A program made the translations under genes and the position numbers. DNA of 51,173 nucleotides from an uncultured Clostridiaceae bacterium (GTDB lineage: Bacteria > Bacillota > Clostridia > Monoglobales > Firm-18): assembly GCA_964455565.1 (NCBI GenBank), contig CAYVWT010000003.1, positions 1-51,173 of the forward strand. Direction: 5' to 3'. A model generated the notes under the pieces. It saw only the letters and a program-made list of their open reading frames with translations. It was not told the DNA's origin and ran no database searches. Of the stretch, positions 1,863-29,935 are shown in pieces; position 1 is the stretch's first letter; every line of letters begins with the position of its first letter.

Positions 1863-1879
1863 AATAACTACCTCCAAGA

Positions 1880-3997
1880 TTATTGAGCTAAATTAATTGG
1901 CTTTGTACCATCTTGTTTTAGCTTGTATATTTTTAGTACATCATTTTCCCAATAAACTTCAAAATTCTCTTCTTGCTGGATTTTTTGCTGAATGTAATTT
2001 TCTATCCAATAATATGCCTTTGCCTCAACAATCCTGCGATTTTTATAATTAGTGTAGAACTTTTCATATGCCGCTCCCACGTCTGGGAAAGGTTGATTAT
2101 AATCCTCTTCAGATAGTGGGTTTGTTAAAACATACGGTTGTGCCTGATTAAGTGGCCGCTTTTCAATAAAAACAAATACATAGTCGGTTGGGAACTCAAT
2201 TTTTGCTTTTGGTTTAACTTGAGTTTCTTCAACGAATTGCCATAAATTATAATGCCATCCATACCCTAAGCTTTGTTGGTATTGTTCTACGGGTGATATT
2301 ATAGTCCAATTCAAAAGTGGAAATTCCGACTTAATTTTGTAATATGCATACGCTGCCTCGTCATATTCAAGCTTTGCTCCCACAGGCATAAGCTGTTTAT
2401 AATCCTGCGCTTGAAAAACCGTCATAATTATTAGTGCACCCATAGCAATTTTCACGATATATTTAATAAGCTTATGAAATGGGAAAAACTCAATAATATA
2501 AATTGCCATTGCAAATAAAACTACGACAATAACACCAAAAAATGTGCTTGCACGGGAAAATTCCATAACAGATGGAAAACCTACGTCTATTGAGCGAACC
2601 TGCGTGTATGTAAAGGCAGATAATACAACAAACATAACGAAAAGCTTCATTTTCCCTGTGTATTCCGGGGTTTTTTTGAAAAATATTCGTAAAAGTGCAT
2701 ACGCCAATATTACTATACCAAATATCATAAACAATTTCATAGCTGGATTTGTTTCAACGTATCTAAATATTTCTTCCTTCCAGTTAAGCTTAACGCTAGT
2801 CGTAGCGCTCTCTACAACGAAACCGAGTGACAATGCGTGGAATTTCATACCCATCGAAAGCGCAATTCCAATCGGAAGTAAACTGATTATAGTCGCAAAG
2901 CCCATTGACGCTAAAAGCTGTACGAATGTTTTGCCTTGAAATACCTTGTTAACATTGAGGATTGCAAGAATTACATATCCAATAACAAGGAACAGCGCTA
3001 CATAAAAGTGGATAAACATAGTAACAGCCAAAACCTCTGCCGCTAATATCATATATGTTTTTTTGTTTGTTGTAAAAAATAAATTTAAAAAATAAAACCC
3101 AGGTAGCAAAAATATTGTAGCATACTCCTGTGGAAGTGCAGACATTTGCCTCCAAATATTGTTTGAAGCATTTGGTAGTTCTGTGCCTAATACATACGCT
3201 GCCACGCCGATGAATATAATTAGGTATTGATTTTTAAAGCTCTTTTTTAGTATGTAATAAATTGAAAGAACTATTAAAAAGCTACCCATACCACCAAAAA
3301 ACCTTACTATAACCACAGGGTCTAAGAAAAATAGTTTGCTAATTGCAGAAATTATAGCCTCGTAACCGTATGGATATACTCCATCTTGGTAGATGCTGTT
3401 TATACCCAAATATTTCGTCCACGCTAAATGAACGTAACAGTCTGATGCGCCATAATAAAGAAACTCAAACGAATGTCTAAACCTAATTATAGCGGCAATA
3501 ATGAAAATTCCAAAGAGCAAAATGCCCGCAAAAGGATGCACAAAAAAATGTATGAAAGCATTTTTCAGTCTATCTGGCAACGCCTTTAAATATGCTTTTG
3601 CATATTTTTTTGGTCCACCCAAAAGCCCGGATTTACCATCTACTAAGTCCAAAGAAATAGAAAAAAACCCAACCTCTTCCTCTTTTACTTTATCAGTTTT
3701 AATTGAATAATTTTTGCGAATTGCAAAATATGCAATAAGCAAGGCAATTATTGCAATTGTTAAAGAAATTGTTTCGTAAATTCTAAACAAAACAAGTAAG
3801 TGAACTAAAACAATTATCGCAAAATTAGAATGAGTTAGTGATATAAATACTCTATCCGTCCAATCGTCGGATAATTCATCAAAGGTAACAGCCTTCGAAG
3901 GTATAAATATATATAATATGTAAAAAGCAAGTACAACTTTTAGAAAAAGAATTATTGTAAATTGCAACGGAAACATCATATCACCTCTTCTTTTCAA
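1880..3997 (-). CDS. Large polytopic membrane protein (over 12 predicted TM helices) with a C-terminal soluble domain; possible GT-C-type or polymer-modifying transferase, function unverified
   Basis: 705-aa ORF, hydrophobic throughout. An acidic cluster follows TM1 (FDELSDDWTD). The roughly 170-aa hydrophilic C-terminus is homologous to that of the adjacent 4010..6001 product (NWTIISPVEQYQQSLGYGWHYN vs QWMIISFQEGYTLAFGNGFHMN; DYVFVFIEKRP vs EDIFIFYEKNI). Only 2 nt separate it from the downstream gene's RBS. Confidence 0.6.
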   Translation of the reverse strand: MKRRGDMMFPLQFTIILFLKVVLAFYILYIFIPSKAVTFDELSDDWTDRVFISLTHSNFAIIVLVHLLVLFRIYETISLTIAIIALLIAYFAIRKNYSIKTDKVKEEEVGFFSISLDLVDGKSGLLGGPKKYAKAYLKALPDRLKNAFIHFFVHPFAGILLFGIFIIAAIIRFRHSFEFLYYGASDCYVHLAWTKYLGINSIYQDGVYPYGYEAIISAISKLFFLDPVVIVRFFGGMGSFLIVLSIYYILKKSFKNQYLIIFIGVAAYVLGTELPNASNNIWRQMSALPQEYATIFLLPGFYFLNLFFTTNKKTYMILAAEVLAVTMFIHFYVALFLVIGYVILAILNVNKVFQGKTFVQLLASMGFATIISLLPIGIALSMGMKFHALSLGFVVESATTSVKLNWKEEIFRYVETNPAMKLFMIFGIVILAYALLRIFFKKTPEYTGKMKLFVMFVVLSAFTYTQVRSIDVGFPSVMEFSRASTFFGVIVVVLFAMAIYIIEFFPFHKLIKYIVKIAMGALIIMTVFQAQDYKQLMPVGAKLEYDEAAYAYYKIKSEFPLLNWTIISPVEQYQQSLGYGWHYNLWQFVEETQVKPKAKIEFPTDYVFVFIEKRPLNQAQPYVLTNPLSEEDYNQPFPDVGAAYEKFYTNYKNRRIVEAKAYYWIENYIQQKIQQEENFEVYWENDVLKIYKLKQDGTKPINLAQ

Positions 3998-7635: not shown

Positions 7636-8697
7636 TTACTGTTGAAGTGTCATATTTATTATAAGCTCAGGTAATTTTGATTCTCTTTCTGCTACAATTA
7701 TATCTTCCTCGGTTAAAACCCTACCCTTAGGTATTACAATATTATTATTACTGTCTAACAAGTCTTCCCCTGCAATTTTGCCAAGTATTAAAGCATTACG
7801 CATTTTCTTAATATCGTCATCACTTGAATTAATCTCTTCACTTGTATCGCTAAAATTATCGTCCATTGGTATTTCTTCTTCGGTATTTTCAAAATCGTAT
7901 AAATTCTCGTACTCATCAAACTTATCGGAATAGTCGATGTCACTATTTAAAAAATCTAATTCGTCATCAAAAGTTTTGGTATGGGTAGATTTTTTGGGTA
8001 TCTGCACCTTATTTTCTTCAACTTCTTCCTTGCTTAAATATTTATTTTTAAAGGCAAATAGCTTTTGGATAGTATCTAAGGAGCTTCCGTCTGCCGTGGT
8101 TCTTCTTGCCCCATCTTTTTCTAATATCGATTTTTCTTCGATCATTTTTCCTTCGAACAATTCTATTACATTTTTATTTGTCTTAGCAACATTTTCGGGA
8201 CTGCGGTTTACTTTTGACTTATCCTTTATTTTAGAAGTAACATCATCAACATTTTCTTTTAATAGCTTAACGACATCCCCTAATAATGATTCTATTTTTG
8301 CCTTGTTTTCCTCAATTTCTTGGCGAAGTCTTTCTGCTATTTTATCATATTCGACTAATTTATCATAGCTTTTTTCCATCAATTGATTTGCTTCTTCATC
8401 TGCCAACATATTTATAAGCGCAATAGTTTTTTCAATACGTTTTAATGCATTATCCATCACTTCATTTGATAATGGTGACTCTCCTACAACTTCATCCTCG
8501 TAAACTATTTCCTCTTTTTTAGAGGCTTGAAGCTCTGAAAGCAATTTATTTTTATCCTTATAAAGCTTATCAATTTCCTCTGATAAATCATTTATATCTT
8601 TACTTTGTTTTTTTGTTAGGTTGTCAAAGTAAGTGTCTACATCTGACTTATTTAAACCAAAAAACTTAGTTGGAATATTAAACCTAAGACCTCTCAT
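7636..8697 (-). CDS. DivIVA-like coiled-coil protein with an acidic linker and a small C-terminal domain
   Basis: AGGAGGTG RBS 5 nt upstream of the ATG at 8697. The N-terminus FNIPTKFFGLNKSDVDTYFDNL fits the DivIVA/GpsB N-terminal pattern (F..GY...EVD.FL). K/E-rich heptad coiled coil follows. The first roughly 150 aa are paralogous to the N-terminus of the 13451..15340 product. Confidence 0.65.
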   Translation of the reverse strand: MRGLRFNIPTKFFGLNKSDVDTYFDNLTKKQSKDINDLSEEIDKLYKDKNKLLSELQASKKEEIVYEDEVVGESPLSNEVMDNALKRIEKTIALINMLADEEANQLMEKSYDKLVEYDKIAERLRQEIEENKAKIESLLGDVVKLLKENVDDVTSKIKDKSKVNRSPENVAKTNKNVIELFEGKMIEEKSILEKDGARRTTADGSSLDTIQKLFAFKNKYLSKEEVEENKVQIPKKSTHTKTFDDELDFLNSDIDYSDKFDEYENLYDFENTEEEIPMDDNFSDTSEEINSSDDDIKKMRNALILGKIAGEDLLDSNNNIVIPKGRVLTEEDIIVAERESKLPELIINMTLQQ

Positions 8698-9186: not shown

Positions 9187-10920
9187 TTAATATATATTTA
9201 AGTTAGCCAAAGCGGTGGTTTTTTGGATTTCAAAATTTGCTTTGTCATTTTTCCCTAATTTCTTGTATGCATTTGCTATTTCAAGTGTAAGCACCGGAAC
9301 TAATGGCGTATTAGGTGAAGACGCTATGGCTTCTTTAAACTGCTCAATCGCTTCGTTAATATACCCCATATTAAGCAATGTATAACCTTTTTCTGCATAA
9401 AACTTTTGTTTCTGCAAAAGCGATATAGGTAGTACCTTTTTAATTTCGATATCTGCTGTCATTAATCCTTTATATGAATTATAATGGTTTTCTAACACTT
9501 TTTCAATAGAAAAATAACTTATTGCTCTCTCACGAGACCTTTTTCCCAAATCTGCAATCATTTCTGGGTCCTTAAGTAGCTTTATAATTCCTGCCGCAAG
9601 CTCATCTGGAGCCTTTGGTGTAACTAATATTCCACAATCTCCAATTGCCTCTTTAATTCCACCAACATCGGTTGATACCACAGGTTTCCCACTCATCATT
9701 GCCTCGACAACTGAATAAGGAAATGCTTCTGAAATGCTTGATAATGCTATTATATCACCACTATTATATGCAGCTGGAACGTCATTTGTGTGCCCTGCAA
9801 AAATAAAATTATCTTTAAGATCAAGCTTTGCAACTCTTTTTAAGCATTCTTGATAATAATCCTCAACTGAAACAGAACCATATACAACCATCTTAACATC
9901 TGGTATTTCTTTTCGGATAATATCGGTAGCCTCAATAAGTGAGATAATATCTTTTAATGGATCTATTCTTGCAATTGATACAACTGTTGGCGAGCTATTT
10001 TTATTTTTCACCTCCATAGGAGCAAAAATGTTATTGTCTACACCATTATATATTACATTTATCTTTGACTTTTCAACGCCAAAACGTTCTTCCCAACGGG
10101 TGTTATATTTACAAACAGGTGAAACAATATCTGCATAATGATAATTCACACTTATTATTGAATTTATCATACGGATAAAAAATGTATTTAAAAAAGACGG
10201 ATATCCCCTTTTAGATAGGGATAGATATTGCTCACGAATATACACTCCATGTTCTGTAAGCATATATGGTGTTTTGTTTTCGATTTTTGATAATATGCAA
10301 GGAATTCCACAAAATGCCGCCGCCGCAGAATGAGTAACATCAACCTTTGGAATTGGGGTGTTTAGCGTAACCATAAACCTGTAAACCCAGCCTAAGCTTT
10401 GAATAAGGGCATATATGCTTGGGGCATCGATATTATTTTCTGCATCATTTGCAAAATCACTAACAAGTTCCTTATATACTTCCCATGTAATTTCAGATTT
10501 GAAGCTTTTTTTATATTCATAATTTTGAAAATATAAATATAAATCGTAAAATATTTCCCCAAGCTTTTGTGGGTTCTTTTCAATACTTAATATTTCAAGT
10601 ATAAGCACCTTAAAAAGAGGTATAAATTTTTTAGAAACTACATCGTCTGTCGTTCTTTTTTTAAGCAAATATACCTTTGAAAAAGGCACATCAAGGTGTT
10701 CGCATGGTTCTTCCGTGCCCCAAAGAGGGACTTTTAAAAGCTCGGTAGAAGAAGGTAGGTCATATATTTGTGAAACGTATGGGTTCATCATTAGGCTGTA
10801 TAATACATAATCAACACCTTGTAGCTGTTTAACAAGAATATCACACCATGTACTAACGCCGCCCGGATGGAACGGATATGTTCCCTCTGTTGACAACATT
10901 ACTTTTATATTATCGCTCAC
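9187..10920 (-). CDS. pelF: PelF-like GT4 glycosyltransferase with a C-terminal TPR extension
   Basis: GTG start at 10920, 5 nt after GGGAGGG. The N-terminal LSTEGTYPFHPGGVSTW matches the EG.YP...GGVS.W motif of the PelF/DUF3492 N-domain. A GT4 E-x7-E motif is present (SEAFPYSVVEAM, then GKPVVSTDVGG). The last roughly 75 aa are TPR-like (YAEKGYTLLNMGYINEAIEQFKEAI…LEIANAYKKLGKNDKA). Confidence 0.7.
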   Translation of the reverse strand: MSDNIKVMLSTEGTYPFHPGGVSTWCDILVKQLQGVDYVLYSLMMNPYVSQIYDLPSSTELLKVPLWGTEEPCEHLDVPFSKVYLLKKRTTDDVVSKKFIPLFKVLILEILSIEKNPQKLGEIFYDLYLYFQNYEYKKSFKSEITWEVYKELVSDFANDAENNIDAPSIYALIQSLGWVYRFMVTLNTPIPKVDVTHSAAAAFCGIPCILSKIENKTPYMLTEHGVYIREQYLSLSKRGYPSFLNTFFIRMINSIISVNYHYADIVSPVCKYNTRWEERFGVEKSKINVIYNGVDNNIFAPMEVKNKNSSPTVVSIARIDPLKDIISLIEATDIIRKEIPDVKMVVYGSVSVEDYYQECLKRVAKLDLKDNFIFAGHTNDVPAAYNSGDIIALSSISEAFPYSVVEAMMSGKPVVSTDVGGIKEAIGDCGILVTPKAPDELAAGIIKLLKDPEMIADLGKRSRERAISYFSIEKVLENHYNSYKGLMTADIEIKKVLPISLLQKQKFYAEKGYTLLNMGYINEAIEQFKEAIASSPNTPLVPVLTLEIANAYKKLGKNDKANFEIQKTTALANLNIY

Positions 10921-10957: not shown

Positions 10958-11311
10958 TTACTCTTGGCTTTTAAATTTATCTACTTCCATTTTTAATAAT
11001 CCAACCTCTTGTATTAAAGTATTTACAAGAATAAATGTTTTTGATAATGCCTTTGTTAAAGAAAGGATTATTAGTATAAGCCCAAAGGTTATAATAAGAA
11101 ACAACGTATTTACAGGCTGTTTAATGGACAAAATATCGGATATTAATTCTATTGCTCCTGGCAGAATAGTTATTATTATCAGTCCAATTGTTGATACAAG
11201 CCAAACAAGTGCATAATGTAATTCTAATTTTCTATTTGCAACAAGATTGATTATATATATAAGAAAAACTGTTGTTGTAACTAATAGAATAATTTGTAGC
11301 CTTGTGTCCAA
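10958..11311 (-). CDS. Small 4-TM membrane protein (DUF2304-like), typically partnered with a GT2
   Basis: 117 aa with three to four hydrophobic helices and a short charged C-terminus (LLKMEVDKFKSQE). It lies immediately downstream of a soluble GT2, which is the usual DUF2304 context. Confidence 0.5.
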   Translation of the reverse strand: MDTRLQIILLVTTTVFLIYIINLVANRKLELHYALVWLVSTIGLIIITILPGAIELISDILSIKQPVNTLFLIITFGLILIILSLTKALSKTFILVNTLIQEVGLLKMEVDKFKSQE

Positions 11312-11344: not shown

Positions 11345-12046
11345 TTATTTTTTAGTTCTTTTTGCAATAGCTGTGATAAGAATTGCGGTTATAACCTTTA
11401 TCATATAATAAACTGATGCCTTTTTACCTATACTTGAGCTTCCGTTAATTCTTTCGTTCATTGTAACTGGAACTTCACATACTTTAAGACCATATTTACT
11501 TGCAGTAACTATCGAGCCTGGCTCTGGATAATCATGCGGATATTCCCAAGCAAAAAGCCTTGTTGCCTTTTTATCACAAACTCTGTAACCAGAGGTAGGA
11601 TCTGAAATATCTTCGCCTGTAAGTATTCTAATAAGCCAGTATAAAATTAATATTCCAAGCCTTCTAATTGCAGATGACTGAAAACCCTCGTAGGTGATAA
11701 ATCTTGAACCAACACAAAGATTATTCCCATTCTTAACAGCCTCTATCATTTTCTCCATACAAGCTGGGCTATGCTGTCCGTCGCCGTCTAATTGGACTAC
11801 AATATCATAATTATTATATACGGCATATTTAAACCCTGTTTGTCTTGCCCCACCTATGCCTAAATTGGCAGGTAATTTAACTACCATCTCTCTATTTCTT
11901 TCTCGGCATATTTTGTAGGAATTATCAATAGAACCATCATCTATAACAAGCACGTCATAGTAGGGGCATTTTTCCCTTATTTCATCTAAGACAAGAGAAA
12001 TGTTTTTTTCCTCGTTAAAAATCGGAATAATAATTAGTACCTTCAT
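11345..12046 (-). CDS. Family 2 glycosyltransferase (Dpm1/GtrB-like polyprenyl-phosphate sugar synthase type)
   Basis: MKVLIIIPIFNEEKNI…YDVLVIDDGSIDNS…VQLDGDGQHSP (GT-A fold with DxD). A hydrophobic or amphipathic C-terminal helix is present (YYMIKVITAILITAIA). Confidence 0.8.
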   Translation of the reverse strand: MKVLIIIPIFNEEKNISLVLDEIREKCPYYDVLVIDDGSIDNSYKICRERNREMVVKLPANLGIGGARQTGFKYAVYNNYDIVVQLDGDGQHSPACMEKMIEAVKNGNNLCVGSRFITYEGFQSSAIRRLGILILYWLIRILTGEDISDPTSGYRVCDKKATRLFAWEYPHDYPEPGSIVTASKYGLKVCEVPVTMNERINGSSSIGKKASVYYMIKVITAILITAIAKRTKK

Positions 12047-12088: not shown

Positions 12089-13405
12089 TTAGTATTTAAA
12101 TTCGTCATTTTCCCAATAGCCATTTTTAATTGTGCTATCTGCAGAAACTTGCTTGCCATTACCATTTTTCTTTCCGTTTTTCCATTCACCTTCATATAAT
12201 TCGCCAGTTGAATAATAAAAAGTGCCATATCCGTTAAATTCGCCATTACTCCACTGACCATCATAATAATTGCCATTATTCCATTGGAACCGACCTTTTC
12301 CAGAAATAAGCCCCTTATGCCATCCTCCAGAATAACTGTCACCACTTACCCATCTCATTGTGCCAATTCCTTGAAAAACTCCATCAACAATCTCGCCATC
12401 ATAATTATCGCCATTTGGCCATTGAAGGTTACATTTTCCATTCATACTATCGTTCTTCCAACCGCCAGAATATATAAACCCATCGGTTCGAGTTAGTTTT
12501 CCTTGCCCCTCTCGAATTCCGCCTGAAACCTGCCCTTCATACCTGCTACCGTCCTCATAATTTACTGCACCATAACCATTTGGAATACCATTAAAGCTTT
12601 CACCAATATATGCCGAACCATCTTTCATAGCAAGAACTTGGTTTTGATTAGAGTTAGAGTTAGAGTTAGAATTCGTATAATTATTATCTGTATTTGAAGT
12701 ATAAGTGTTGAAAACTGGCGCCTGATAATGCCCGTTGTAATAAGAAAAACCCAGCCTTACAAGGCGTTCTGTTTGAAGTTGGTTATTACTTGCTATTTTG
12801 TCAATGAGCACAGTATTATCATATGTTTTAACCTTCAAAGTTTCCCATAAAATTTCAATCATATCATTCTTGTTAAGAACTTTATCGTTTAAATTTTTAG
12901 CTTCTTTTGGAGGAATACCGCCAAAATAGGAATTGATATAAGCAGAAATTGTCGACATATTACTATCTAAGCTATATCCCATAGATTTTAATAGCATAGC
13001 TGTGAAAGTCTTTCCATCAATAAGCCTTTTAGGTGAAATGCTGTTACCTTGAATATCTAACAGTATCCTTTGATTAATTCCATAAGCAATATATTTTCTT
13101 GCCCAATCAGAAACCGTTGATCTGTCATTATAATTATTTAAGATGTTCCTAACATCGTATTCTGAGAGGCTTTGAATATCACTTTTCGATTTTACTAATC
13201 TCAGCAAAAATACAACCGCTGTTTCTGTATCAACGAAAGAGTTTAAGTCGGGCTCGAAAAAGCTTTGCGAAACACCATTATAAAAACCTAAATCATATAG
13301 AATTCTTGCTTCTTCAATATAGCTATTAGAAGCATATACATTAAAGCTAAGCGAAAATGTTAAAAGCAAAATAATACTTATTATATTTTTCATTATTCTT
13401 ACCAT
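12089..13405 (-). CDS. Secreted MORN-repeat protein with an SLH-like N-terminal module
   Basis: Signal peptide MVRIMKNIISIILLLTFSLSFNVYA. The N-terminal half has SLH-like segments (GFYNGVSQSFFEPDLNSFVDTETAVVFLLRL; DWARKYIAYGINQRIL). An (NS)n/NQ linker follows, then at least 7 MORN-type repeats (YEGQVSGGIREGQG, YSGGWKNDSMNGKC, YDGEIVDGVFQGIG, YSGGWHKGLISGKG, YDGQWSNGEFNGYG, YEGEWKNGKKNGNG). Confidence 0.7.
   Translation of the reverse strand: MVRIMKNIISIILLLTFSLSFNVYASNSYIEEARILYDLGFYNGVSQSFFEPDLNSFVDTETAVVFLLRLVKSKSDIQSLSEYDVRNILNNYNDRSTVSDWARKYIAYGINQRILLDIQGNSISPKRLIDGKTFTAMLLKSMGYSLDSNMSTISAYINSYFGGIPPKEAKNLNDKVLNKNDMIEILWETLKVKTYDNTVLIDKIASNNQLQTERLVRLGFSYYNGHYQAPVFNTYTSNTDNNYTNSNSNSNSNQNQVLAMKDGSAYIGESFNGIPNGYGAVNYEDGSRYEGQVSGGIREGQGKLTRTDGFIYSGGWKNDSMNGKCNLQWPNGDNYDGEIVDGVFQGIGTMRWVSGDSYSGGWHKGLISGKGRFQWNNGNYYDGQWSNGEFNGYGTFYYSTGELYEGEWKNGKKNGNGKQVSADSTIKNGYWENDEFKY
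12640..12676. repeat. In-frame hexanucleotide tandem repeat (gagtta)n encoding the (NS)n linker of the MORN protein
   Basis: gattagagttagagttagagttagaattc read directly. It translates on the minus strand as NSNSNSNSN. Confidence 0.9.
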
Positions 13406-13450: not shown

Positions 13451-15340
13451 TTAAACGTACATATATGCCTCTTCTTCAGGCAATGGTTTTGCTAAATAAA
13501 ACCCTTGCAAATAATCACATTTCATATCTACAAGCATCTCACATTGAATATTATCTTCAACGCCCTCTGCTACTACTTTAAGCCCTAAATCATGGGTTAT
13601 GCTTATAATTGACCTAATAAACATTTCGCATTTTTCATTTGTTTTTAAATCGTCTAAGAAGGTTTTGTCTATTTTAATAATAGAAACTGGCATTTTCAAT
13701 AAATATGATAGGCTTGAATAGCCTGTGCCAAAATCGTCAATTGAAATAGTAATGCCCATATTTCTAATTTGTTCAATCTTCAAGCAATTTTCTTTAAAGT
13801 TATCCATAAAGCAGGATTCTGTTATCTCAAACCCTAAATTGTTTGGAGAAACACCTATTTGTTCAATAATTTTGGTAATATTTCCGATGAATTCATCTTT
13901 TAATATCTGCGTTGGTGTAAAATTTATATACACAATCAAATTTTTCTTACTGTTTTTTGAATTTATCCTCTTAGCAAAATAGCACGCCTTTTTAAATATA
14001 AGGTCGGTTATGTCATCTAATAGAGCCTCTTTTTCTGCTATTTGAATAATGTTATAAATAGGAATTTTATTGTATCTTTCATCTGTCCACCTAAGAAGCG
14101 CTTCAAACCCATACAATTCCTTGGTTTCAGATAAATACTGTGGTTGATAGTATAGTTCAAGTGCTTTTTGTTCTATTGCCTCAACTAAGTCAAGCTTCAT
14201 ATCATTACTAAATTTCAAATCATCAATCAAAACTTCATCTGCAAAATAGTATAAATTTTTGCCTTGATCTTTCGACTTATATAAAGCAATGCCGGCATAA
14301 TTCATAATAGCTTCGCTATTATTTGAATTGTTATCATATACAGAAATACCAATATTGGCAGATAACTCAGCCTTTTTATCTTTAACTATAATTTTTCTGC
14401 TAATTTGCTTTAAAATAATTTTCGCTAATTTCCCAATAGTATCTGCATTGCCTATGCCATTATATATTATGCCTACTTGGTCATAAGAGAGCCTTGCAAC
14501 ATATAGGTTGTCATTTATGCCTTTAATTCTGGTTAAAACTTCATTTATGAGTATATCATCAGAATATGAATCGAACAAGTAATTTGCAACAATAAATTCA
14601 TTTATTTCTATAAGAAGCAATGCTCCACTTGCTTTTTCGCCACCATCTGCACTATTTAAAATTGCATTTAAATTTTTTAAAAATTCCGTCTTTGTATCAT
14701 TATATGACGCCAGGCTTTTTATTACTTTTTCTTCAACAATTTTTGGTATTTTGTTGTAGGGCTTTGCCTCTTCATCTCTTTTACCAAAGAGTCCTATCAC
14801 ATCATTTTTATTATTTCCTGTAAAATCAACATTTTTTATCACGTTAAAATCTTCGTCATCTGATACGTGCATATTACCTTTTATGTGTATATCATCTATA
14901 TTTGTTTTTAGCAAAGAAATAACCTGAGCCAACAAATTTTCAATTCTTTCTTTTTTGTCATCAATTTCGTTTTGCAGGTCATTTAGGATTGCGTCATATT
15001 CTTCAATCTGAAACTTCGCTCTTTCTATAATTTGTTCGATTTTCTGATTTGCAATTTCGTCAATAAGTGAAATTGTTTTTTCAACCCTTTTATGAGCATC
15101 AATCATAAGCTCATTTTGGTTTATAAGTGGGGCTTCATCTTTATATATTATTTGATCTTGCTTCGCTTGTTCAAGTTCAAGAAGCAAATTTTCTTTTTTA
15201 GTTTCAAGCATTTTGATTTCTCTAATTAGCTTGTTTAATAATTTATTATGTCCTTCTAAAAGGCTCTCAATAAAATAATCGACATCATCTTTGTTAAGCC
15301 CTAAATATTTAGTTGGTATAGTTATATTTGGTGGTAACAT
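13451..15340 (-). CDS. DivIVA-like N-terminal coiled coil fused to a degenerate GGDEF domain and an intact EAL domain (c-di-GMP phosphodiesterase)
   Basis: The likely start is the ATG at 15340 (MLPPNITIPTKYLGLNKDDVDYFIESL), which aligns with the start of paralogue 7636..8697. The GGDEF motif position reads SYDQV (VARLSYDQVGII). EAL catalytic motifs are all present: YGFEALLRW, YINFTP, GFEITES, IDDFGTGYSS, IKIDKTF, VAEGVED, LQGFYLAKP. Confidence 0.8.
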   Translation of the reverse strand: MLPPNITIPTKYLGLNKDDVDYFIESLLEGHNKLLNKLIREIKMLETKKENLLLELEQAKQDQIIYKDEAPLINQNELMIDAHKRVEKTISLIDEIANQKIEQIIERAKFQIEEYDAILNDLQNEIDDKKERIENLLAQVISLLKTNIDDIHIKGNMHVSDDEDFNVIKNVDFTGNNKNDVIGLFGKRDEEAKPYNKIPKIVEEKVIKSLASYNDTKTEFLKNLNAILNSADGGEKASGALLLIEINEFIVANYLFDSYSDDILINEVLTRIKGINDNLYVARLSYDQVGIIYNGIGNADTIGKLAKIILKQISRKIIVKDKKAELSANIGISVYDNNSNNSEAIMNYAGIALYKSKDQGKNLYYFADEVLIDDLKFSNDMKLDLVEAIEQKALELYYQPQYLSETKELYGFEALLRWTDERYNKIPIYNIIQIAEKEALLDDITDLIFKKACYFAKRINSKNSKKNLIVYINFTPTQILKDEFIGNITKIIEQIGVSPNNLGFEITESCFMDNFKENCLKIEQIRNMGITISIDDFGTGYSSLSYLLKMPVSIIKIDKTFLDDLKTNEKCEMFIRSIISITHDLGLKVVAEGVEDNIQCEMLVDMKCDYLQGFYLAKPLPEEEAYMYV

Positions 15341-15499
15341 ATTATTACATTCCTTCCCTTGTATAAGCATAAACAGTATATACTTATATTAATTACACAA
15401 TGTAATTATACCTGTTATTAAACATATATTAAAGGCTTTTGTTATTTTTGGAATATGTAATGTATTTTTTAAATCATAATAACTAAAAATATAACGTTT

Positions 15500-16216
15500 C
15501 TACATTCCATCATACTCTGTAAGATATTTCGTATAATGCATAAAGGCTGCCTTTTTCCTGCTTTTACTTATGGGGATTACATAACCATTAGTGAGTATAA
15601 TATCACCCTCAACAATTGTTTTTATATGTGCCATATTAACCAAAAAACCCTGATGGACTCGAACAAATCCAAAAGTTTTTAACCTTTCCTCTTCGATTGT
15701 AAGCTTTGAATAAAAACCTATTCTGTCATTTGTGGTTACGGCAAAAACTTGCCTCTTAACACTTTCTAAATATAATAAATTATCTATATTTATTGTGATT
15801 AGCCTTGATTTTGTTTGTACAGAATATCGCTTTTCATTTTTGAATAATTCTTTGATGGCACTACTATAAGCTTTTTTTATTTGCTCCTCTGTAAAAGGCT
15901 TCATAATGTATCTAAATGCTTTCACCTCGTAGCCTAAAAAAACATAGTCCATACTTGATGTAACAAAAAATACTAAAACGCTACTATCAATTTCCAAAAT
16001 GCTCCTTACTGTTTCTATGCCATCAAGCTTTCCAAGCTTTGTTTCAAGGAATATCATATTAAAACGTATGCCCTTCTTTTTATACGCTGCAATAAGGTCC
16101 TCTCCACTATTATATAAATATATTTCCATTTCTCGGAATTCACGGTTATAGCTGCTTAATATTTGCCTTAATTCCTCAGCACTATTATTATCACAATCGC
16201 AAATTGCAATTTTCAT
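15500..16216 (-). CDS. Orphan LytTR-family response regulator with an atypical receiver domain (Glu at the phospho-acceptor position)
   Basis: The ATG at 16216 (MKIAICDCDNN) lies downstream of GGAAAGGA. Receiver domain: NMIFLETKLGKLDGIE, where the canonical motif is ..D..MP.MDG (D->E); FFVTS and IMKPF are conserved. C-terminal LytTR domain: LLYLESVKRQVFAVTTNDRIGFYSKLTIEEERL…FVRVHQGFLVNMAHI. No histidine kinase gene is adjacent. Confidence 0.8.
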   Translation of the reverse strand: MKIAICDCDNNSAEELRQILSSYNREFREMEIYLYNSGEDLIAAYKKKGIRFNMIFLETKLGKLDGIETVRSILEIDSSVLVFFVTSSMDYVFLGYEVKAFRYIMKPFTEEQIKKAYSSAIKELFKNEKRYSVQTKSRLITINIDNLLYLESVKRQVFAVTTNDRIGFYSKLTIEEERLKTFGFVRVHQGFLVNMAHIKTIVEGDIILTNGYVIPISKSRKKAAFMHYTKYLTEYDGM

Positions 16217-16299
16217 ATTTATAGCCACTATCCTTTCCCGCTCACGAAAATTAGTGAAATATATCAATATAATTTTATGCCTTTAACGGCTATGATTAC

Positions 16300-18574: not shown

Positions 18575-21145
18575 TTAGTTATAATCTATTTCATTTCTTT
18601 TTAGCTTCTTTGTTGGGTCATTTTTATATTTACCAGCATCGTTTTCAGTAAAGCCAAAGGAAGCTCTCATTGCATCATCATACGCCCAATGTGAATCAGA
18701 TAAATCAGGGTATGGATTTGTTATATCGCCAATATCATAGGTACTATCTCTGCCTATTAAACGGTTTATCATAACAACATATTCAGCACGGGTTAATTGC
18801 TCATCCGGTCTTATTGTGTTATCACTATAACCCTTTAATAGTCCAACATCATAAAGCGCCTTAACATAAGTATAATACTTATTGCTTTCAGTCAAATCTT
18901 TAAAGCTTATAGCATTAGTATCGTCTGGCTGTAAACCCATTGCAAATGCAATAAGCTTGCTTGCCTCGCCCCTTGTAATTGGTGCAGTAGGCTTAATGTT
19001 ATCTGTCTTTGCAAATGCGCCGATAAATTTCATATATTCTATTGCATTAAATGACCATCTGCCTTTTTCCAAATCGCCATAGCTTGAACTTGAAGGAGGG
19101 TTAAACCTGCCTGTTTGTCCATCTTGTTTTAATAAACGGTATAAAAGCGCTGCAGCTTCTTCCCTTTTTACACTATCTTCAAGACCAGCTACGCCCTGTT
19201 CATATCCATAAAGATATGCATAGCTATAATTGATATAAACTCTTTTTGCAGGTGCAGGTGTTGGTGTTGGTGTTGGTGTTGGTGTTGGTGTTGGTGTTGG
19301 TGTTGGCGTTGGTGTTGGTGTTGGTGTTGGAATAGTTGCTGGCATTGTAACAGTAACTGTGCTCGTTACATTTCCTCCCATACCGTCAGACACTGTAACA
19401 GTAAAGCTGTCAACACCTACAGCATTTAATTTTGGTGTGTACACCCAAGCCCCTGTTGTTGTATTTTCAGAAGCATCACCTTTTGTTGCCACTGTACCTA
19501 CAATATATGTAAGTGGGTCTTTATCTGCATCTGTCGCAACTATTGCACCAGAAACCGGGGTGTTTGAAGCTGTGTTCACGCTTATGTTTGAAGTAACAGG
19601 AATATGGTTTGCTTTAATATTAAAACTCATACTTGCTGTTTCAGAATATGCTATTCCATCGCTTGTTGCCTGCCATTTTAGTGGTGAGCTACCTACAAAA
19701 GAAGAAGATGCTACAAAAGTTAACACATTAAAGCTACTTGCTGATATTATATCTCCAACCTTTACAGCAGTTCCATTATTTTTAAATATTCCAGCGCTTG
19801 ATAATGGCAAAGCTATAACCTTTATTTTAGCGACATTACTTGAATAGCTATCGACAAATTCTTTACCTGTAAACTGGTATGTGGTATTTTGTCTTGTGTT
19901 AATTGTGCTATCTATTATTTTAGCTGTAATACCAGATTTTCCAAAATTACTAATAGAAACCGTTCCATTATTACCACCCTTTGAAGCGTCAATCGCTCCA
20001 TTAACCACTAATGTACCGGTTGGAACCTTGCTACCATCTAAAAATGCAGTTGCAGTACCTTTTTCATCTGTAACAACATTAGTTGGAGTTGTAAATTCCG
20101 CATCAGGACCGGATAAAACAGATAATGTCAAAGGTATTCCTGCTGCCACAGTTCCGTCTGAATTTTTAACTGTTGCAGTAATAAGGCTTGTTTGTGCATT
20201 AGAAGAAGGTGTTGCTGTTAATTCAATTTTTGGTGACTCTATATATTTATTATTAACAGGGTCTATTGAAGTAGTTACATAGTCATTATTAAAATACCAT
20301 GATTTTATATACTCCTTCGAGTATGCTCCACCTGTTGCACCAGTAAAGCCTGCAAACACTTTATCTGTTATAAGTGTGGTTGAAGAAGAAAGGTTTATAC
20401 TCTGAGTTAATATTGCTTTTTCAGGGCGAACTGTTGAATCTGCGCTGACTCTTACGCTTAAAATTTTAGTTATACCATCATAGTCTATCCATGCAGTATA
20501 TGTTTTTTCCTTACCACTCTTAGGAGCAGAGTTTCCATTGCTTGTTCCGTTACCAAAGTTAAATGTGCCAGCTGGTACACCATACAGCTTTTCGATGTCA
20601 ACTTCCTTGATTTTGGCTATAGGGTGCATGGTATCACCATTAATGTTGATTGCTACGTGATTTTGAGACAAGCCAGAATCTCCATATTCGGAGGAGTTAT
20701 CCCATGTATCAAATTCAACGCCAAGGCTGTTAGTAACTCCTGAATAACCCATTCCGCCACCTAATGCCCCAAGATTATTTGTGTTAGTATTTATAACGAA
20801 TACAATACCATCGGCACCACTCGGTCCAATACCCCCTGGGTTTGTTATATTAAATGTAAACATTGTACTAAAAGACCTATCATTGGCAAGTGAAACATAG
20901 TTTCCACAATAAAAGCTACCACTTTGATTGGTCAGTGCATCGGTCAATCTAATATCTTGTGTTGAGCCTTGTTTTACAGCCGTTGCAGTTCCATTTAGTT
21001 TAATTCGAGCAGTATTTGAAAAGTCTGGATATATAAATGTAATTGCTGAGTTTTTTGCCGCACTAACATTTATTCCTAATTGAAAAGTTAAAACAGCCAT
21101 AATTGTTAAAAAAGATATTACCCTCGAAAATATTGCTTTGCTCAT
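18575..21145 (-). CDS. S-layer-homology-anchored surface protein with an N-terminal legume-lectin-like domain, Ig-like and cadherin-like domains, a (PT)n linker and 3 SLH repeats
   Basis: Signal peptide MSKAIFSRVISFLTIMAVLTFQLGINVSA. Lectin_legB-like blocks: IKLNGTA…LTDALTNQSGSFY…FSTMFTFNI…GADGIVFVI…GGGMGYSG…LGVEFDTWDN…NHVAININGD. Cadherin/VCBS-like block: AIVATDADKDPLTYIV…DSFTVTVSDGMGG. A (PT)12 linker follows. C-terminal SLH motifs: SFKDLTESNKYYTYVKALYDVGLLKGYSDNTIRPDEQLTRAEYVVMINRLI. Confidence 0.8.
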   Translation of the reverse strand: MSKAIFSRVISFLTIMAVLTFQLGINVSAAKNSAITFIYPDFSNTARIKLNGTATAVKQGSTQDIRLTDALTNQSGSFYCGNYVSLANDRSFSTMFTFNITNPGGIGPSGADGIVFVINTNTNNLGALGGGMGYSGVTNSLGVEFDTWDNSSEYGDSGLSQNHVAININGDTMHPIAKIKEVDIEKLYGVPAGTFNFGNGTSNGNSAPKSGKEKTYTAWIDYDGITKILSVRVSADSTVRPEKAILTQSINLSSSTTLITDKVFAGFTGATGGAYSKEYIKSWYFNNDYVTTSIDPVNNKYIESPKIELTATPSSNAQTSLITATVKNSDGTVAAGIPLTLSVLSGPDAEFTTPTNVVTDEKGTATAFLDGSKVPTGTLVVNGAIDASKGGNNGTVSISNFGKSGITAKIIDSTINTRQNTTYQFTGKEFVDSYSSNVAKIKVIALPLSSAGIFKNNGTAVKVGDIISASSFNVLTFVASSSFVGSSPLKWQATSDGIAYSETASMSFNIKANHIPVTSNISVNTASNTPVSGAIVATDADKDPLTYIVGTVATKGDASENTTTGAWVYTPKLNAVGVDSFTVTVSDGMGGNVTSTVTVTMPATIPTPTPTPTPTPTPTPTPTPTPTPTPAPAKRVYINYSYAYLYGYEQGVAGLEDSVKREEAAALLYRLLKQDGQTGRFNPPSSSSYGDLEKGRWSFNAIEYMKFIGAFAKTDNIKPTAPITRGEASKLIAFAMGLQPDDTNAISFKDLTESNKYYTYVKALYDVGLLKGYSDNTIRPDEQLTRAEYVVMINRLIGRDSTYDIGDITNPYPDLSDSHWAYDDAMRASFGFTENDAGKYKNDPTKKLKRNEIDYN
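19251..19330. repeat. In-frame hexanucleotide tandem repeat (ggtgtt)n encoding the (PT)n linker
   Basis: ggtgcaggtg ttggtgttgg tgttggtgtt … read directly. There are about 12 units with one ggcgtt variant. Confidence 0.95.
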
Positions 21146-21237
21146 AATTTTTTCTCCTCTTATATAATTTTATTTTTTATTGTTAAATTTACATATATAT
21201 TAACAAGGTAGCCCTTGAAATAATTTATTTAGAGTAC

Positions 21238-21301
21238 AAAAAAAGCCGTATATAAACCGAATATGAAGATTTCTCTACATAATATTGGAATAATAAACGG
21301 C
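21238..21301 (-). terminator. Intrinsic terminator/attenuator inside the 5' leader of the lectin gene
   Basis: Minus-strand RNA GCCGUUUAUUAUUCCAAUAU…AUAUUCGGUUUAUAUACGGC forms a long imperfect hairpin with a 4 G-C pair base. It is followed by UUUUUUU (A-run at 21238-21244 on the plus strand). It lies about 90 nt upstream of the RBS and ATG at 21145. Confidence 0.65.
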
Positions 21302-21393
21302 AGCTGGCTGTCATATCCTAAACGAATTATGGACTTAGACCCTATAGCTTTGTGCAATTGCCTTTCAGCAATTATACTTTTTACGATTGTTAT
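21290..21393 (-). promoter_or_regulatory. GEMM-I (c-di-GMP-I)-like riboswitch aptamer candidate, possibly a variant
   Basis: Minus-strand RNA …AAAAAGUAU-AAUUGCU-GAAA-GGCAAUU-GCACAAAGCUAUAGGGUC-UAAG-UCC…GGA-UAU-GACAGCCAGCUGCCG. One hairpin is capped by a GAAA tetraloop (21356-21373). The adjacent hairpin (21306-21342) carries a near-canonical 11-nt tetraloop receptor: UCUAAG/UAUGA versus canonical CCUAAG/UAUGG, with a compensated C-G to U-A pair. The CAAAGC linker matches the ACGCAAAGC linker of GEMM-I. The 3' flank GCCGUUUAU is the 5' arm of the terminator. Confidence 0.55.
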
Positions 21394-21399
21394 AATGAC

Positions 21400-21428
21400 A
21401 TAATATAACAAAATTTTAAATATGTCAA
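21400..21428 (-). promoter_or_regulatory. Candidate sigma-A promoter of the lectin-gene leader
   Basis: On the minus strand: TTGACA (21428-21423), 17 nt spacer, TATTAT (21405-21400). Confidence 0.5.
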
Positions 21429-26363: not shown

Positions 26364-26377
26364 TTAATTAGGGTTGC
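26354..26377. terminator. Perfect 24-nt palindrome shared by the 3' ends of two convergent genes (probable bidirectional hairpin)
   Basis: GCAACCCTAATTAATTAGGGTTGC. It contains the TAA stop of the lipoprotein gene (26361-26363) and the TAA stop of lgt (26364-26366 on the minus strand). TTTT follows on the plus strand. Confidence 0.45.
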
Positions 26378-27158
26378 TTTTCCTATTCCTCACTATCAAT
26401 ACTATGCCACCTATCGCTGTCACTACTGCTACTATTTGTGATATTTTAAAGCTTGCTGAATATGGTAAGGAATCAACTCTTAGCTGTTCTATCCACATTC
26501 TGCCTAAACCGTACCATGTTACATATAGCAAAAATACTTCGCCCTCGAACTTTTTATACTTACGATAATAAAATAGCAATAAAAACCCTACTAAATTCCA
26601 CAGGCTTTCATATAGAAAAGTTGGGTGAACAGACATTATTTTTGATAATTCCGTATTATATATTTCCATTCTCCACGGTAGGTTTGTTTCACTTCCGAAT
26701 GCTTCCACATTCATAAAATTGCCCCATCTGCCAATTATTTGCCCAATTAAAAGACCAAATGCTCCAACGTCAAGAACCTTTACAAAGCTAACTTTTTTAA
26801 CCCTACAATATATGTACCCTGCTAATACTCCACCGATTATTGCACCATATATTGCTATTCCACCCTCCCAAATGGCTATCGCCGAAAGTGGGTTTCCTGC
26901 ATAGTCCTTCCAGTTCCACGCAACGAAATATATTCGTGCGCAAATAATAGCGCTTGGCGTTCCTATTAAAGCAATATCAACCATAGTATCCTCTGGCAGA
27001 TGGACCCTTTTAGCTTCCCGAATGCAGAACAAGACTGCAAGGAGCAGTCCTGTCCCTATTATTATTCCATACCAATATATTTCCTTGCCAAATATCTCAA
27101 AGGCTACTCGGTTTAAATTAAAATAAAGCCCAAGCCCTGGAAAATTAACCATTTGCAT
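26364..27158 (-). CDS. lgt: Prolipoprotein diacylglyceryl transferase
   Basis: GLGLYFNLNRVAFEIFGKEIYWYGIIIG and the Lgt signature GRWGNFMNVEAFG. It is a multi-TM protein. Confidence 0.92.
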   Translation of the reverse strand: MQMVNFPGLGLYFNLNRVAFEIFGKEIYWYGIIIGTGLLLAVLFCIREAKRVHLPEDTMVDIALIGTPSAIICARIYFVAWNWKDYAGNPLSAIAIWEGGIAIYGAIIGGVLAGYIYCRVKKVSFVKVLDVGAFGLLIGQIIGRWGNFMNVEAFGSETNLPWRMEIYNTELSKIMSVHPTFLYESLWNLVGFLLLFYYRKYKKFEGEVFLLYVTWYGLGRMWIEQLRVDSLPYSASFKISQIVAVVTAIGGIVLIVRNRKSNPN

Positions 27159-27178
27159 AACGTCACCCTCTAAATGAT

Positions 27179-28453
27179 TTAATAAGGTTTTATGATAGAT
27201 ATTCCTGCATTTTCGCTTACTAAATGTCTTTGAAGCCTTGCTTGTACATCTTGCAGGGTTATACTATCACACACATCTAAGAAATTAAAAAGGTCAATTC
27301 CTTTAAATAAATTCGTCACAAAGCTGTGCGACAAACGGTCAACACTGTTGAACATTCTTAAAAATTGTCCTTTTTGAACTTTTTTGCAACGCTGAAATTC
27401 CTGTTCTGTTAGGTTTGCGCTGGCTAATCCTTTTAATATAATTTCTTGAACAAGCTCTGGGTTTGGACTTTCGCCACCCATAGCTGAAAAACCATAATCA
27501 CGCTCACCCTCATACGAGGCACTAAAGCTATCATTTATCAAGCCCTGCTCGTATAATTCGTTATACATTTCACTACTTTTGCCAGCTAACATATCAAGTA
27601 GTATCGAGGTTGTAATGTCTTTTTTAAGTAGCATTTCACCCTCATAGCCAACGTCGGTATCTTTAAACCCAAGCAAAAAGAGTGGTGTTGCAACGCTAAG
27701 GTTTTGTTCAACTTTTGCTTTACTAATCCTTTCAGGCTCGTTTTTATAAAAGCGACCAATTTCTGCCTGCTCATCTGCTTTAACATATCTATCTACAACC
27801 TCTTCCACCATTTCTGGTTCAACATCGCCACAGGTGAAAAGTATCATATTTGATGGATTATAAAAAGTATTATAGCATTTATATAATATATCCTTGTTTA
27901 TTTCTGAAATTGTTTCAACAGTTCCTGCGATATCCTTGCGAACTGGGTGGTTTACATAAAGTGCCTCTAACATATTAAAAAACACTCGCCAATTTGGGTC
28001 ATCATCATACATTCTAATTTCTTGACCAATTATGCCTTGTTCCTTTTGCACATTTTCATCTGTAAAATATGGCTGACCTACAAAGCCCATTAAAATTTCA
28101 AGGTTTTCGTAGAATTTATCTGTGCATGAAAACAAATATGCTGTTGTGTTAAAGCTTGTAAAAGCATTAGCAGATGCACCAGTTTTGCTATATTCATCAA
28201 ATGCGTTGCCACCGCCCGGCTGTTCAAAAAGCTTATGCTCTAAAAAATGTGCAATTCCGTCTGGTACTGTTGTAATGCTCGCCTCACCCGGCACTATAAA
28301 CTCGCTATCTATCGAGCCATAGTGTGTTACAAACATTGCATAGCTTTTGCTATGCTCCTTTTTTGGTAGCACATATACCGTAAGCCCACTTTTGTGCCTG
28401 CCCTTATAAAGCGTTTCGTTTAATGTTTTGTTGTAAATTTTCTCGAACACCAT
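27179..28453 (-). CDS. M16-family zinc peptidase (active subunit)
   Basis: The inverted zinc motif HFLEH is present (DGIAHFLEHKLFEQ). 424 aa. The start overlaps the stop of the upstream M16 gene (TAATG at 28451-28455). Confidence 0.85.
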   Translation of the reverse strand: MVFEKIYNKTLNETLYKGRHKSGLTVYVLPKKEHSKSYAMFVTHYGSIDSEFIVPGEASITTVPDGIAHFLEHKLFEQPGGGNAFDEYSKTGASANAFTSFNTTAYLFSCTDKFYENLEILMGFVGQPYFTDENVQKEQGIIGQEIRMYDDDPNWRVFFNMLEALYVNHPVRKDIAGTVETISEINKDILYKCYNTFYNPSNMILFTCGDVEPEMVEEVVDRYVKADEQAEIGRFYKNEPERISKAKVEQNLSVATPLFLLGFKDTDVGYEGEMLLKKDITTSILLDMLAGKSSEMYNELYEQGLINDSFSASYEGERDYGFSAMGGESPNPELVQEIILKGLASANLTEQEFQRCKKVQKGQFLRMFNSVDRLSHSFVTNLFKGIDLFNFLDVCDSITLQDVQARLQRHLVSENAGISIIKPY

Positions 28454-29905: not shown

Positions 29906-29935
29906 ACACCTCGCAAATATTTTTATAGAACAAAA

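Follow-up and report, generated by a model that had tools for sequence, protein, structure and literature searches.

A predicted c-di-GMP phosphodiesterase with a DivIVA/GpsB-like N-terminal module copied from a protein of its own Pel-like gene cluster

It is an open problem how specific outputs are obtained from many cyclic diguanylate (c-di-GMP) enzymes that use one diffusible signal. Local signalling has been proven in few cases, PdeK and DgcC at the cellulose synthase among them, and finding these took laborious interaction studies. In a stretch of 51,173 nucleotides from an uncultured Clostridiaceae bacterium (contig CAYVWT010000003.1 of assembly GCA_964455565.1; the whole stretch is referred to as the window), a gene lying in a Pel-like polysaccharide cluster encodes a protein, here called the target, in which an N-terminal module related to DivIVA and GpsB (the N-module) is followed by a degenerate GGDEF domain and an intact EAL domain. 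The question raised by this locus is to what place such a module would bring a c-di-GMP phosphodiesterase (PDE). The sequence itself suggests a docking route, as the enzyme bears a domain copied from a structural protein of the co-encoded machine. The answer that we favor, and consider moderately probable, is that the PDE is docked to the Pel-like synthase through this borrowed scaffold domain and would act there as a local c-di-GMP sink, in a way resembling PdeK.

The enzymatic half of the target

The longest open reading frame (ORF) at the locus in the ORF list extends from 13451 to 15370 on the minus strand. Translation probably starts at the ATG at 15340, which is preceded, at a suitable distance, by the ribosome-binding site AGGGAAGGA, and in the orthologue alignment all target orthologues start at the methionine equivalent to it. 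The upstream start at 15370, which corresponds to a public gene call of 639 amino acids (aa) (P0038), was ruled out by the ribosome-binding site and the orthologue N-termini. On these grounds 13451..15340, encoding 629 aa, is the best gene model; the coordinates of the original prediction were thus retained as a gene model and the strand was corrected to minus. The protein is predicted to be a cytoplasmic, c-di-GMP-specific PDE. Its relatives appear in database clusters as "hypothetical protein" only, apart from one misleading automatic name ("Phytochrome-like protein cph2").

The EAL domain matched the Pfam model (PF00563) with an E-value of 1.2e-63 and 215.1 bits (cut-off 31.3 bits) over profile positions 3-236 of 236. 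All 11 catalytic residues (E413, R417, N473, E505, E508, D535, D536, K556, E592, E595 and Q612) were found in the target, and these residues, together with the loop 6 motif DDFGTGYSS, were invariant in an alignment of 11 orthologous sequences spanning 45-93% identity. The claim of the original prediction that the EAL domain has every catalytic motif was thereby borne out, and the intact catalytic set suggests that the domain hydrolyses c-di-GMP. The solved proteins nearest to the target are themselves GGDEF-EAL phosphodiesterases, with MorA (4rnh, E 1.3e-55) at the top, followed by DosP and MucR.

The GGDEF domain was recognizable as a fold (PF00990, E 1.8e-13, 51 bits, cut-off 23.8 bits), and its active site is degenerate. 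In alignment with MorA 4rnh the GG(D/E)EF motif is replaced by SYDQV, and the metal/phosphate motif D-l-D-r-F-K corresponds to E-I-N-E-F-I; both the SYDQV-type replacement and the loss of D-x-D-x-F-K hold across all target orthologues. At the position of the I-site, five residues upstream of SYDQV, the target has NDNL and not RxxD, and RxxD was found at this position in none of ten orthologues, which read NNNL, NSNL, SKNI, PYNL, EYNL or DSNL. The SYDQV active site without an RxxD I-site, as originally described, was therefore seen in the target, and the absence of RxxD extends to its orthologues. These three features (SYDQV, E-I-N-E-F-I and the lack of RxxD) indicate that diguanylate cyclase (DGC) function and the feedback site were lost, which rules out a GGDEF domain active as a cyclase as well as one regulated through the I-site. 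The sequence R-L-[SA]-Y-D-Q-[VIL]-G-I was kept in all orthologues despite the fact that some of them are only 45-56% identical overall, and reading of the alignments showed that N253 and D262, which occupy guanine-binding positions of active cyclases, are also conserved in the orthologues. Conservation of the replacement motif and of these two residues argues that the domain is under selection for a role other than synthesis, which might be, for example, structural, regulatory or nucleotide-sensing.

The N-terminal module and its origin

Residues 8-154 of the target were found to be 43% identical (E 4e-31) to residues 8-156 of the 353-aa protein encoded by the same cluster at 7636..8697, which confirms the paralogy that had been proposed for these two N-termini. 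The latter protein and its relatives are referred to as the short form. A monomer model of the N-module, built with AlphaFold2 from a 36-sequence alignment, had a mean predicted local distance difference test (pLDDT) score of 85.9 and consisted of a coil (residues 1-16), a helix (17-66), a loop (67-74) and a second helix (75-155). As far as a monomer can tell, this predicted layout is consistent with the N-domain, linker and coiled coil of DivIVA.

The relationship to DivIVA was visible at the level of the family. Taken alone, the target matched Pfam DivIVA (PF05103) with 15.9 bits (E 0.013) when the full protein was used and with 17.4 bits (E 0.0045) when the N-module was used, in both cases below the curated cut-off of 28 bits; this sub-threshold match runs from position 9 to position 127 of the 131 in the profile. 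When the N-module was used as a single sequence to search the Protein Data Bank (PDB), chance coiled-coil matches only were returned, and neither DivIVA nor GpsB. Foldseek comparison of the N-module model with the PDB gave zero matches, but long helices are uninformative in such comparisons, so this outcome speaks neither for nor against likeness to DivIVA. When a family profile was made from 36 aligned N-modules collected by an exhaustive profile search (see below), its top four matches in the PDB, with E-values of 1.3e-4 to 9.5e-4, were N-terminal domains of GpsB; another four GpsB entries and the DivIVA of Bacillus subtilis (2wuj, E 0.013) followed further down the list. The GpsB structures matched were 9pv2, 8e2c, 8e2b, 4ug1, 4ug3, 6gqa, 6gpz and 6gp7 (E 1.3e-4 to 2.6e-2), and all of these GpsB and DivIVA alignments run over fGlnkkqVdeYlekl, aligned with RGYRREEVDAFLDDI, and the coiled coil after it. 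Pfam DivIVA was touched by 33 of the 36 family members (best E 2e-7), the next family by 18. Among the NCBIfam models GpsB (NF010725) was the commonest (16 of 36, best E 1.9e-5), and the DivIVA-domain model TIGR03544 was matched by ten members. In hhalign the family and B. subtilis DivIVA aligned with 72% probability (E 3.3e-5) over 126 collinear columns, which take in the N-terminal domain as well as the C-terminal coiled coil; the DivIVA sequence used here was validated as DivIVA by its own match (166 bits over the full profile length). On these results the N-module belongs, as a distant member, to the DivIVA/GpsB superfamily and is more than a generic coiled coil, although by the curated threshold it stays outside Pfam DivIVA. 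The term "DivIVA-like" used in the original prediction accordingly holds as remote homology at the family level, seen by profile and hhalign, whereas the target taken alone falls short of the Pfam cut-off.

The best-conserved part of the N-module is not the coiled coil but the non-coiled N-terminal loop IPTK-x-x-GLNK-x-DVD, which is common to the short-form family; in the 36 family sequences G14 never varies, and conservation of V20 reaches at least 90%. In DivIVA a hydrophobic and a basic residue stand exposed at the tip of the equivalent loop, where they touch or insert into the membrane (PMC8348161). Aligned with it, the target has Y12-L13 at the tip, and the short-form paralogue encoded in the window has F12-F13. 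The target tip is flanked by K11 and K17 (positions -1 and +4), and it keeps the hydrophobic residue but not the adjacent arginine of DivIVA. This arginine is missing from the target and its close relatives, and an exact F-R-G or L-R-G occurs in a few distant members of the family. Judged from these residues, membrane contact by the loop tip is plausible.

An exhaustive HMMER profile search with the N-module, performed on 1.84 billion representative proteins (E up to 1e-3), yielded 37 matches, of which 35 were real family members; the remaining two (P0025 and P0032) were dropped as repeat-protein artefacts. A word-indexed homologue search with the N-module alone as query found no matches, in contrast to the exhaustive search, which did find the family. 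Thirty-three of the 35 members are short forms of 212-579 aa, in which the module is followed by an acidic low-complexity linker and a strongly conserved C-terminal motif, (K)MRNxLIIGKIAGEDLLDSxxNxIIxKGKVLTEEDIxxAEKExKLPELIINM. The other two are a bare N-module fragment (P0010, 148 aa) and a GGDEF-EAL fusion like the target (P0006, 627 aa). In two of the short-form relatives (P0022 and P0034) the N-module is separated from the C-terminal domain by a PRC-barrel (Pfam PRC, E 2.5e-5 and 4.1e-7, respectively). The fused architecture, for which a database survey had been proposed, proved to be rare: full-length orthologues of the target (at least 98% coverage, 45-93% identity) formed about 12 protein clusters among 5.8 billion, the remaining matches of the full-length search covering the GGDEF-EAL part only. 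The N-module family is thus rare and unnamed, and the fused protein is limited to a small uncultured lineage.

In a neighbor-joining tree of the N-modules the fused copies formed a single clade (100 of 100 bootstraps), which joined the short forms from its own small lineage (93 of 100) and was nested within the wider short-form family. This monophyly and nesting show that there was a single fusion event, in which the 5' part of a short-form gene was duplicated. Every genome that has the fusion has retained both the fused and the short-form copy.

To place the short form in its genomic surroundings, the short-form alignment was scanned against one genome per species, and the neighbors of the hits were typed by tblastn with the proteins of the window. 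The 51 short-form loci obtained, all from Bacillota, came from Paenibacillus, among them P. alginolyticus DSM 5050 with locus L012, and from Peptococcaceae, Clostridia, Bacillales and others. In 45 loci the gene that follows directly downstream of the short form is PelG-like, and a PelF-like gene lies upstream in about 42, several others being cut by contig ends. Two large membrane proteins are nearly always present as well, and a homologue of the HD-GYP-type protein occurs in about half. The target, the MORN-repeat gene and the LytTR gene are confined to a few loci of one lineage (L001-L008), found in Bacillota UR.bin39 and UR.bin154, Firmicutes ADurb.Bin193 and an uncultured Oscillospiraceae metagenome-assembled genome. 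The gene order from the LytTR gene through the two large membrane proteins is preserved in metagenome-assembled genomes that have a target orthologue of only 48-55% identity. In two of these loci, L002 (7172..7969) and L003 (5551..6348), a histidine-kinase-like gene (HATPase_c_5) stands between the LytTR gene and the target orthologue, a position at which the window has none. From the distribution of the loci it follows that the short form is a core part of a widespread Pel-like cassette, whereas the target is a lineage-specific addition to it.

The proposed site of action

According to the preferred reading, the N-module would provide a loop for binding to the membrane or to a partner and, after it, two long helices of coiled coil. 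Having been duplicated once from the 353-aa scaffold protein of the cluster, this common module would bring the enzyme into the same membrane-proximal assembly as the short form, either by hetero-oligomerization with the short form (and perhaps with the 143-aa product of the gene that separates the PelF-like gene from the short form) or by binding to a common site on the membrane or on a partner. There c-di-GMP would be hydrolyzed beside the Pel-like synthase, and polysaccharide output would be held down; expression of the target would probably be set by the adjacent LytTR response regulator. We prefer the synthase as the address because the protein from which the module was copied is dedicated to the cassette and both copies were kept side by side, because the closest solved relatives are the GpsB adaptors rather than DivIVA, and because DivIVA/GpsB domains assemble through coiled coils of the kind common to both paralogues. 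The c-di-GMP context supports the preferred reading too, as about half of the cassettes include the HD-GYP homologue and a c-di-GMP riboswitch is located nearby.

Several points weigh against this reading. Paralogous coiled coils often evolve away from cross-assembly, hence common ancestry of the two modules is no proof that they assemble together, and the coiled coil could serve only to dimerize the EAL domain. No c-di-GMP receptor for such a sink to act on was identified in the cluster, and no PelD was recognized by Pfam and NCBIfam scans among its ORFs or in the syntenic loci. As the PelG-like protein of the window has no Pfam PelG match of its own, the name Pel-like depends on PelF and on homologues.

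If the N-module behaved as a true DivIVA, it would oligomerize and bind the negatively curved membrane of the pole or septum, making the sink independent of the polysaccharide machinery. For such behavior speak the hhalign match over 126 columns and the Pfam match over positions 9-127 of 131, by which the homology spans the N-terminal domain as well as the C-terminal coiled coil, and the predicted helix-linker-helix fits DivIVA. Moreover, the Y12-L13 tip with K11 and K17 resembles a lipid-inserting hydrophobic-plus-basic tip (PMC8348161), and the exact F-R-G or L-R-G tip does occur in some family members. On the other hand, the match of the target is under the Pfam threshold, the tip arginine is absent from it and from its close relatives, and the best solved relatives are the N-terminal domains of GpsB. 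GpsB N-terminal domains act as adaptors for the tails of membrane proteins. Furthermore, the family of the module goes with the PelF/PelG-like cassette, in about 45 of 51 loci, and not with division genes, and curvature sensing emerges from DivIVA oligomers and is unreadable from sequence. Taken together, the curvature-targeting interpretation of the N-module is only partly supported and we regard it as doubtful; docking to the scaffold or synthase of the cluster appears at least as likely as targeting to the pole or septum. Alternatively, the N-module might be a mere oligomerization device with no part in targeting, one that dimerizes or tetramerizes the GGDEF-EAL part and thereby switches on the EAL domain, in which case the enzyme would lower the global c-di-GMP level when LytTR activates the block. 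EAL phosphodiesterases function as dimers, the module is nearly all helix with no specific fold match in Foldseek, and the target alone misses the DivIVA threshold. A plain dimerizer, however, would not need the conserved non-coiled loop with its G14 and V20, nor would it explain why the module was derived from the very protein of the cassette and has stayed beside it in each genome with the fusion; we therefore give this possibility a small chance.

It can also be asked whether the target is a c-di-GMP sensor or effector of the LapD or FimX kind, which would bind the nucleotide at its EAL site and signal to the scaffold in place of PelD. The lack of a recognizable PelD-type receptor in the cluster would leave room for such a protein, a degenerate GGDEF domain next to an EAL domain is the architecture of several known receptors, and the module is common to the target and to a structural component of the cassette. 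But known EAL receptors have lost catalytic residues, whereas the catalytic set of the target and DDFGTGYSS did not vary among its orthologues, and the best solved matches, MorA, DosP and MucR, are active PDEs. In addition, the core cassette is present in about 40 other genomes without the target, which consequently cannot be an essential receptor. A non-catalytic receptor role thus seems unlikely, and the sensor or effector model as a whole very improbable.

Returning to the docked PDE, its closest functional counterpart is found in Escherichia coli, where PdeK, encoded beside the cellulose operon, and DgcC form a local sink and source of c-di-GMP at the BcsB subunit of cellulose synthase, direct contact of PdeK with BcsB having been shown experimentally (PMC7397504). 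In both cases the gene of a GGDEF-EAL-type PDE lies beside an exopolysaccharide operon, and the enzyme is proposed to act locally and not on the global pool. PdeK is an integral membrane protein, whereas the target is soluble and carries a cluster-derived DivIVA/GpsB-like module, through which it is proposed to dock. The Pel system of Bacillus cereus (pelDEADAFG) is regulated through PelD by the PDE CdgE and the DGC CdgF, and bifidobacterial pel loci with an adjacent DGC/PDE gene have been noted (PMC7112168). Like the B. cereus cluster, the present one belongs to a member of the Bacillota and includes a glycosyltransferase of the PelF type and a putative membrane protein of the PelG type, and c-di-GMP control in both includes an output-lowering PDE, which is here predicted. 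It differs in having two DivIVA-like proteins between pelF and pelG and a PelG-like protein that is highly divergent; CdgE, unlike the target, has ten predicted transmembrane helices and a predicted location in the cytoplasmic membrane (PMC7112168), and it has no DivIVA module.

The N-module resembles DivIVA (PF05103, 2wuj) in the loop motif hydrophobic-x-G-[YLF]-x-x-x-x-V-[DN]-x-[FY]-[LI] and in the predicted layout behind it, where a linker connects two coiled coils, but it is fused to enzyme domains, its tip arginine is replaced, and it is tied to a polysaccharide cluster and not to division or polar growth. GpsB provides the best-scoring solved relatives, and a cytoplasmic adaptor that gathers membrane enzymes fits the proposed role as a scaffold; GpsB itself has a distinct small C-terminal hexamerization domain and binds the tails of penicillin-binding proteins, and neither feature is seen here. 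TipF of Caulobacter (which works with TipN), FimX and LapD are c-di-GMP receptors with impaired catalysis. They are similar to the target in combining an EAL domain with a coiled coil and a spatially restricted role, or with a degenerate GGDEF domain, but the target differs from them in that it retains every EAL catalytic residue.

GGDEF-EAL phosphodiesterases near exopolysaccharide operons, degenerate GGDEF domains and locally acting PDEs are already well known. What is new is the type of the N-terminal domain and its origin as a copy of a scaffold encoded by the cluster; a literature search found no paper that couples DivIVA with GGDEF or EAL domains, and a cassette with DivIVA-like proteins between pelF and pelG appears to be undescribed in the literature searched. 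If the preferred reading is true, the locus would offer a simple rule, namely to seek PDEs or DGCs that have a module in common with a neighboring structural gene. It also points to a DivIVA/GpsB-type role beyond cell division, in a Pel-like system without a described PelD that is common in Paenibacillus, Peptococcaceae and Clostridia. The direct impact is limited, as the fused gene is rare and comes from uncultured bacteria only. One could go a step further and suppose that the DivIVA/GpsB-type proteins whose genes lie between pelF and pelG, namely the short form and the 143-aa protein, are constituent cytoplasmic subunits of the widespread Pel-like machine of Bacillota which replace PelD and PelE in holding PelF at the membrane, and that in one lineage the PDE captured a copy of this scaffold and thereby wired a sink into the synthase. 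The locus would then be a genetically readable example of local second-messenger signalling that evolved by domain borrowing; this extension is tentative, and we think that it is possible but not probable.

Neighboring genes, transcription and the riboswitch

The features of the locus are collected in Table 1. All genes of the block are on the minus strand, and in the direction of transcription the order is LytTR, target, MORN, GT2, DUF2304, PelF-like, the 143-aa protein, short form, the 535-aa protein, the two large membrane proteins and the HD-GYP-type protein.

Table 1. Coordinates of the target, its parts and the neighboring features in the window
Feature	Position	Strand	Description or basis
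Target gene	13451..15340	-	629 aa; DivIVA/GpsB-like N-module, degenerate GGDEF, intact EAL
N-module, residues 1-156	14873..15340	-	Paralogy, AlphaFold2, family profile, hhalign
Signature loop IPTKYLGLNKDDVDYFI	15269..15319	-	Equivalent of DivIVA F17-R18-G-Y-D-E-D-E-V-N-E-F-L; translation, GpsB alignments
Variable linker, residues 157-215	14696..14872	-	Poorly conserved, indel-rich in orthologue alignment
Degenerate GGDEF domain, residues 219-362	14255..14686	-	Pfam GGDEF; alignment to MorA 4rnh
SYDQV replacing GG(D/E)EF	14474..14488	-	Alignment to MorA 4rnh, translation
EAL domain, residues 384-619	13484..14191	-	Full catalytic set and DDFGTGYSS loop 6; Pfam, alignment
Intergenic region upstream of target, 159 bp	15341..15499	-	Promoter-like TTAATA-16-TATAAT at 15432..15405
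LytTR-type response regulator	15500..16267	-	Pfam; directly upstream of target; syntenic in all orthologous loci
Secreted MORN-repeat protein	12089..13405	-	Directly after target
GT2 glycosyltransferase	11345..12046	-	Next after MORN gene
DUF2304 protein	10958..11311	-	After GT2 gene
PelF-like GT4 (DUF3492 and GT4, C-terminal TPR)	9187..10920	-	Pfam DUF3492, Glycos_transf_1, TPR_8; NCBIfam
Third DivIVA-like protein, 143 aa	8727..9158	-	SLFGYSASEVEKSIDKL, then coiled coil; between PelF-like gene and short form
Short-form paralogue, 353 aa	7636..8697	-	Same N-module, acidic disordered linker, C-terminal domain (residues 289-353)
Divergent PelG-like polytopic membrane protein, 535 aa	6015..7622	-	Assigned via homologues
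Two large membrane proteins, ~660-700 aa	4010..6001 and 1880..3997	-	Many transmembrane segments, soluble C-terminal part
HD-GYP-type protein	42..1877	-	Distal end of block; Pfam HD_5 E 9.5e-29; HD dyad replaced by SN
c-di-GMP-I riboswitch	21296..21388 (flanks 21225..21428)	-	Rfam RF01051, 63.3 bits (gathering threshold 35), E 3.9e-10

The PelF-like protein scored 141.6 bits with the NCBIfam PelF model (NF038011, cut-off 100) and is thus a PelF by this measure. Its own C-terminal TPR occupies residues 507-564. In classical Pel systems the TPR protein PelE helps to keep PelF at the membrane, and by analogy the TPR of the PelF-like protein may be a fused equivalent of PelE. The 535-aa protein itself had no match in Pfam or NCBIfam, and tblastn with it against plasmids found none either. 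Homologues about 50% identical to it matched Pfam PelG (PF16933) at positions 28-452 of 452 with E-values of 6.5e-7 to 5e-5 (23-29 bits, cut-off 29), and since this match is nearly end to end, the protein is taken as a putative divergent PelG. PelE and the PelA deacetylase were not recognized in the cluster, where no search aimed at the deacetylase was made.

The 143-aa protein was the sole match of the N-module profile among the 279 ORFs of the window other than the two paralogues (E 2.8e-5). It also matched the NCBIfam model MAG0865, a DivIVA-related protein (E 2e-4), and its orthologues are likewise 143 aa long. BLASTP did not link the target with this protein, so that only the profile connects the two. 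In the close lineage it is 62-71% identical, which makes it better conserved than its neighbors. The C-terminal domain of the short form (7636..7824) was predicted by AlphaFold2 to be a small alpha/beta unit (pLDDT ~90), and no Pfam family was found for it. The sole Foldseek matches of this domain were weak and involved an element of about 38 residues in the beta' and beta subunits of RNA polymerase (E ~0.1, probability 0.99, 29% identity).

The two large membrane proteins look paralogous and had no family match except a weak one to DUF6541 on one orthologue; they may be GT-C-like transferases or polymerases. In the HD-GYP-type protein YLSNIG stands in place of the LLHDIG of V-cGAP3 (5z7c), HHExxDGxGYP is kept, and there is a cysteine-rich C-terminal tail. 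To judge from these motifs, the protein may be a receptor that lacks activity and not a phosphodiesterase.

The gaps inside the block measure 3-46 bp, and the gap corresponding to the 159 bp before the target is 174-315 bp in L001-L004. This pattern fits a promoter before the target, and the LytTR regulator encoded next to it may control this promoter. The LytTR gene points in the same direction as the target, and a sequence scan of the intergenic gaps upstream of the target found no terminators there. Of the earlier view that the target is the first gene of the operon, the wide gap with its promoter-like site speaks in favor, and the co-directional LytTR gene without an intervening terminator and the riboswitch farther up on the same strand against; a first position of the target appears plausible.

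The full-length riboswitch is preceded by a near-consensus promoter-like sequence (TTGACA-17-TATTAT, 21428..21400), the best promoter-like site of the region. It precedes a gene for an 856-aa surface protein with legume-lectin, Big_9 and SLH domains (18575..21145), and in RNA folding a hairpin with U7 directly after the aptamer was the sole terminator-like element upstream of the target. No c-di-GMP-I riboswitch was found in six related loci; it therefore lies outside the conserved system and belongs with the lectin/SLH gene. Farther along the window, 26364..40081 contains the chromosomal housekeeping genes lgt, M16 peptidases, rsmE-like, prmA, dnaJ, dnaK, grpE, hrcA, hemN-like and lepA. Because such ordinary genes flank it, the cluster is chromosomal, in a low-GC (~33%) Bacillota genome.

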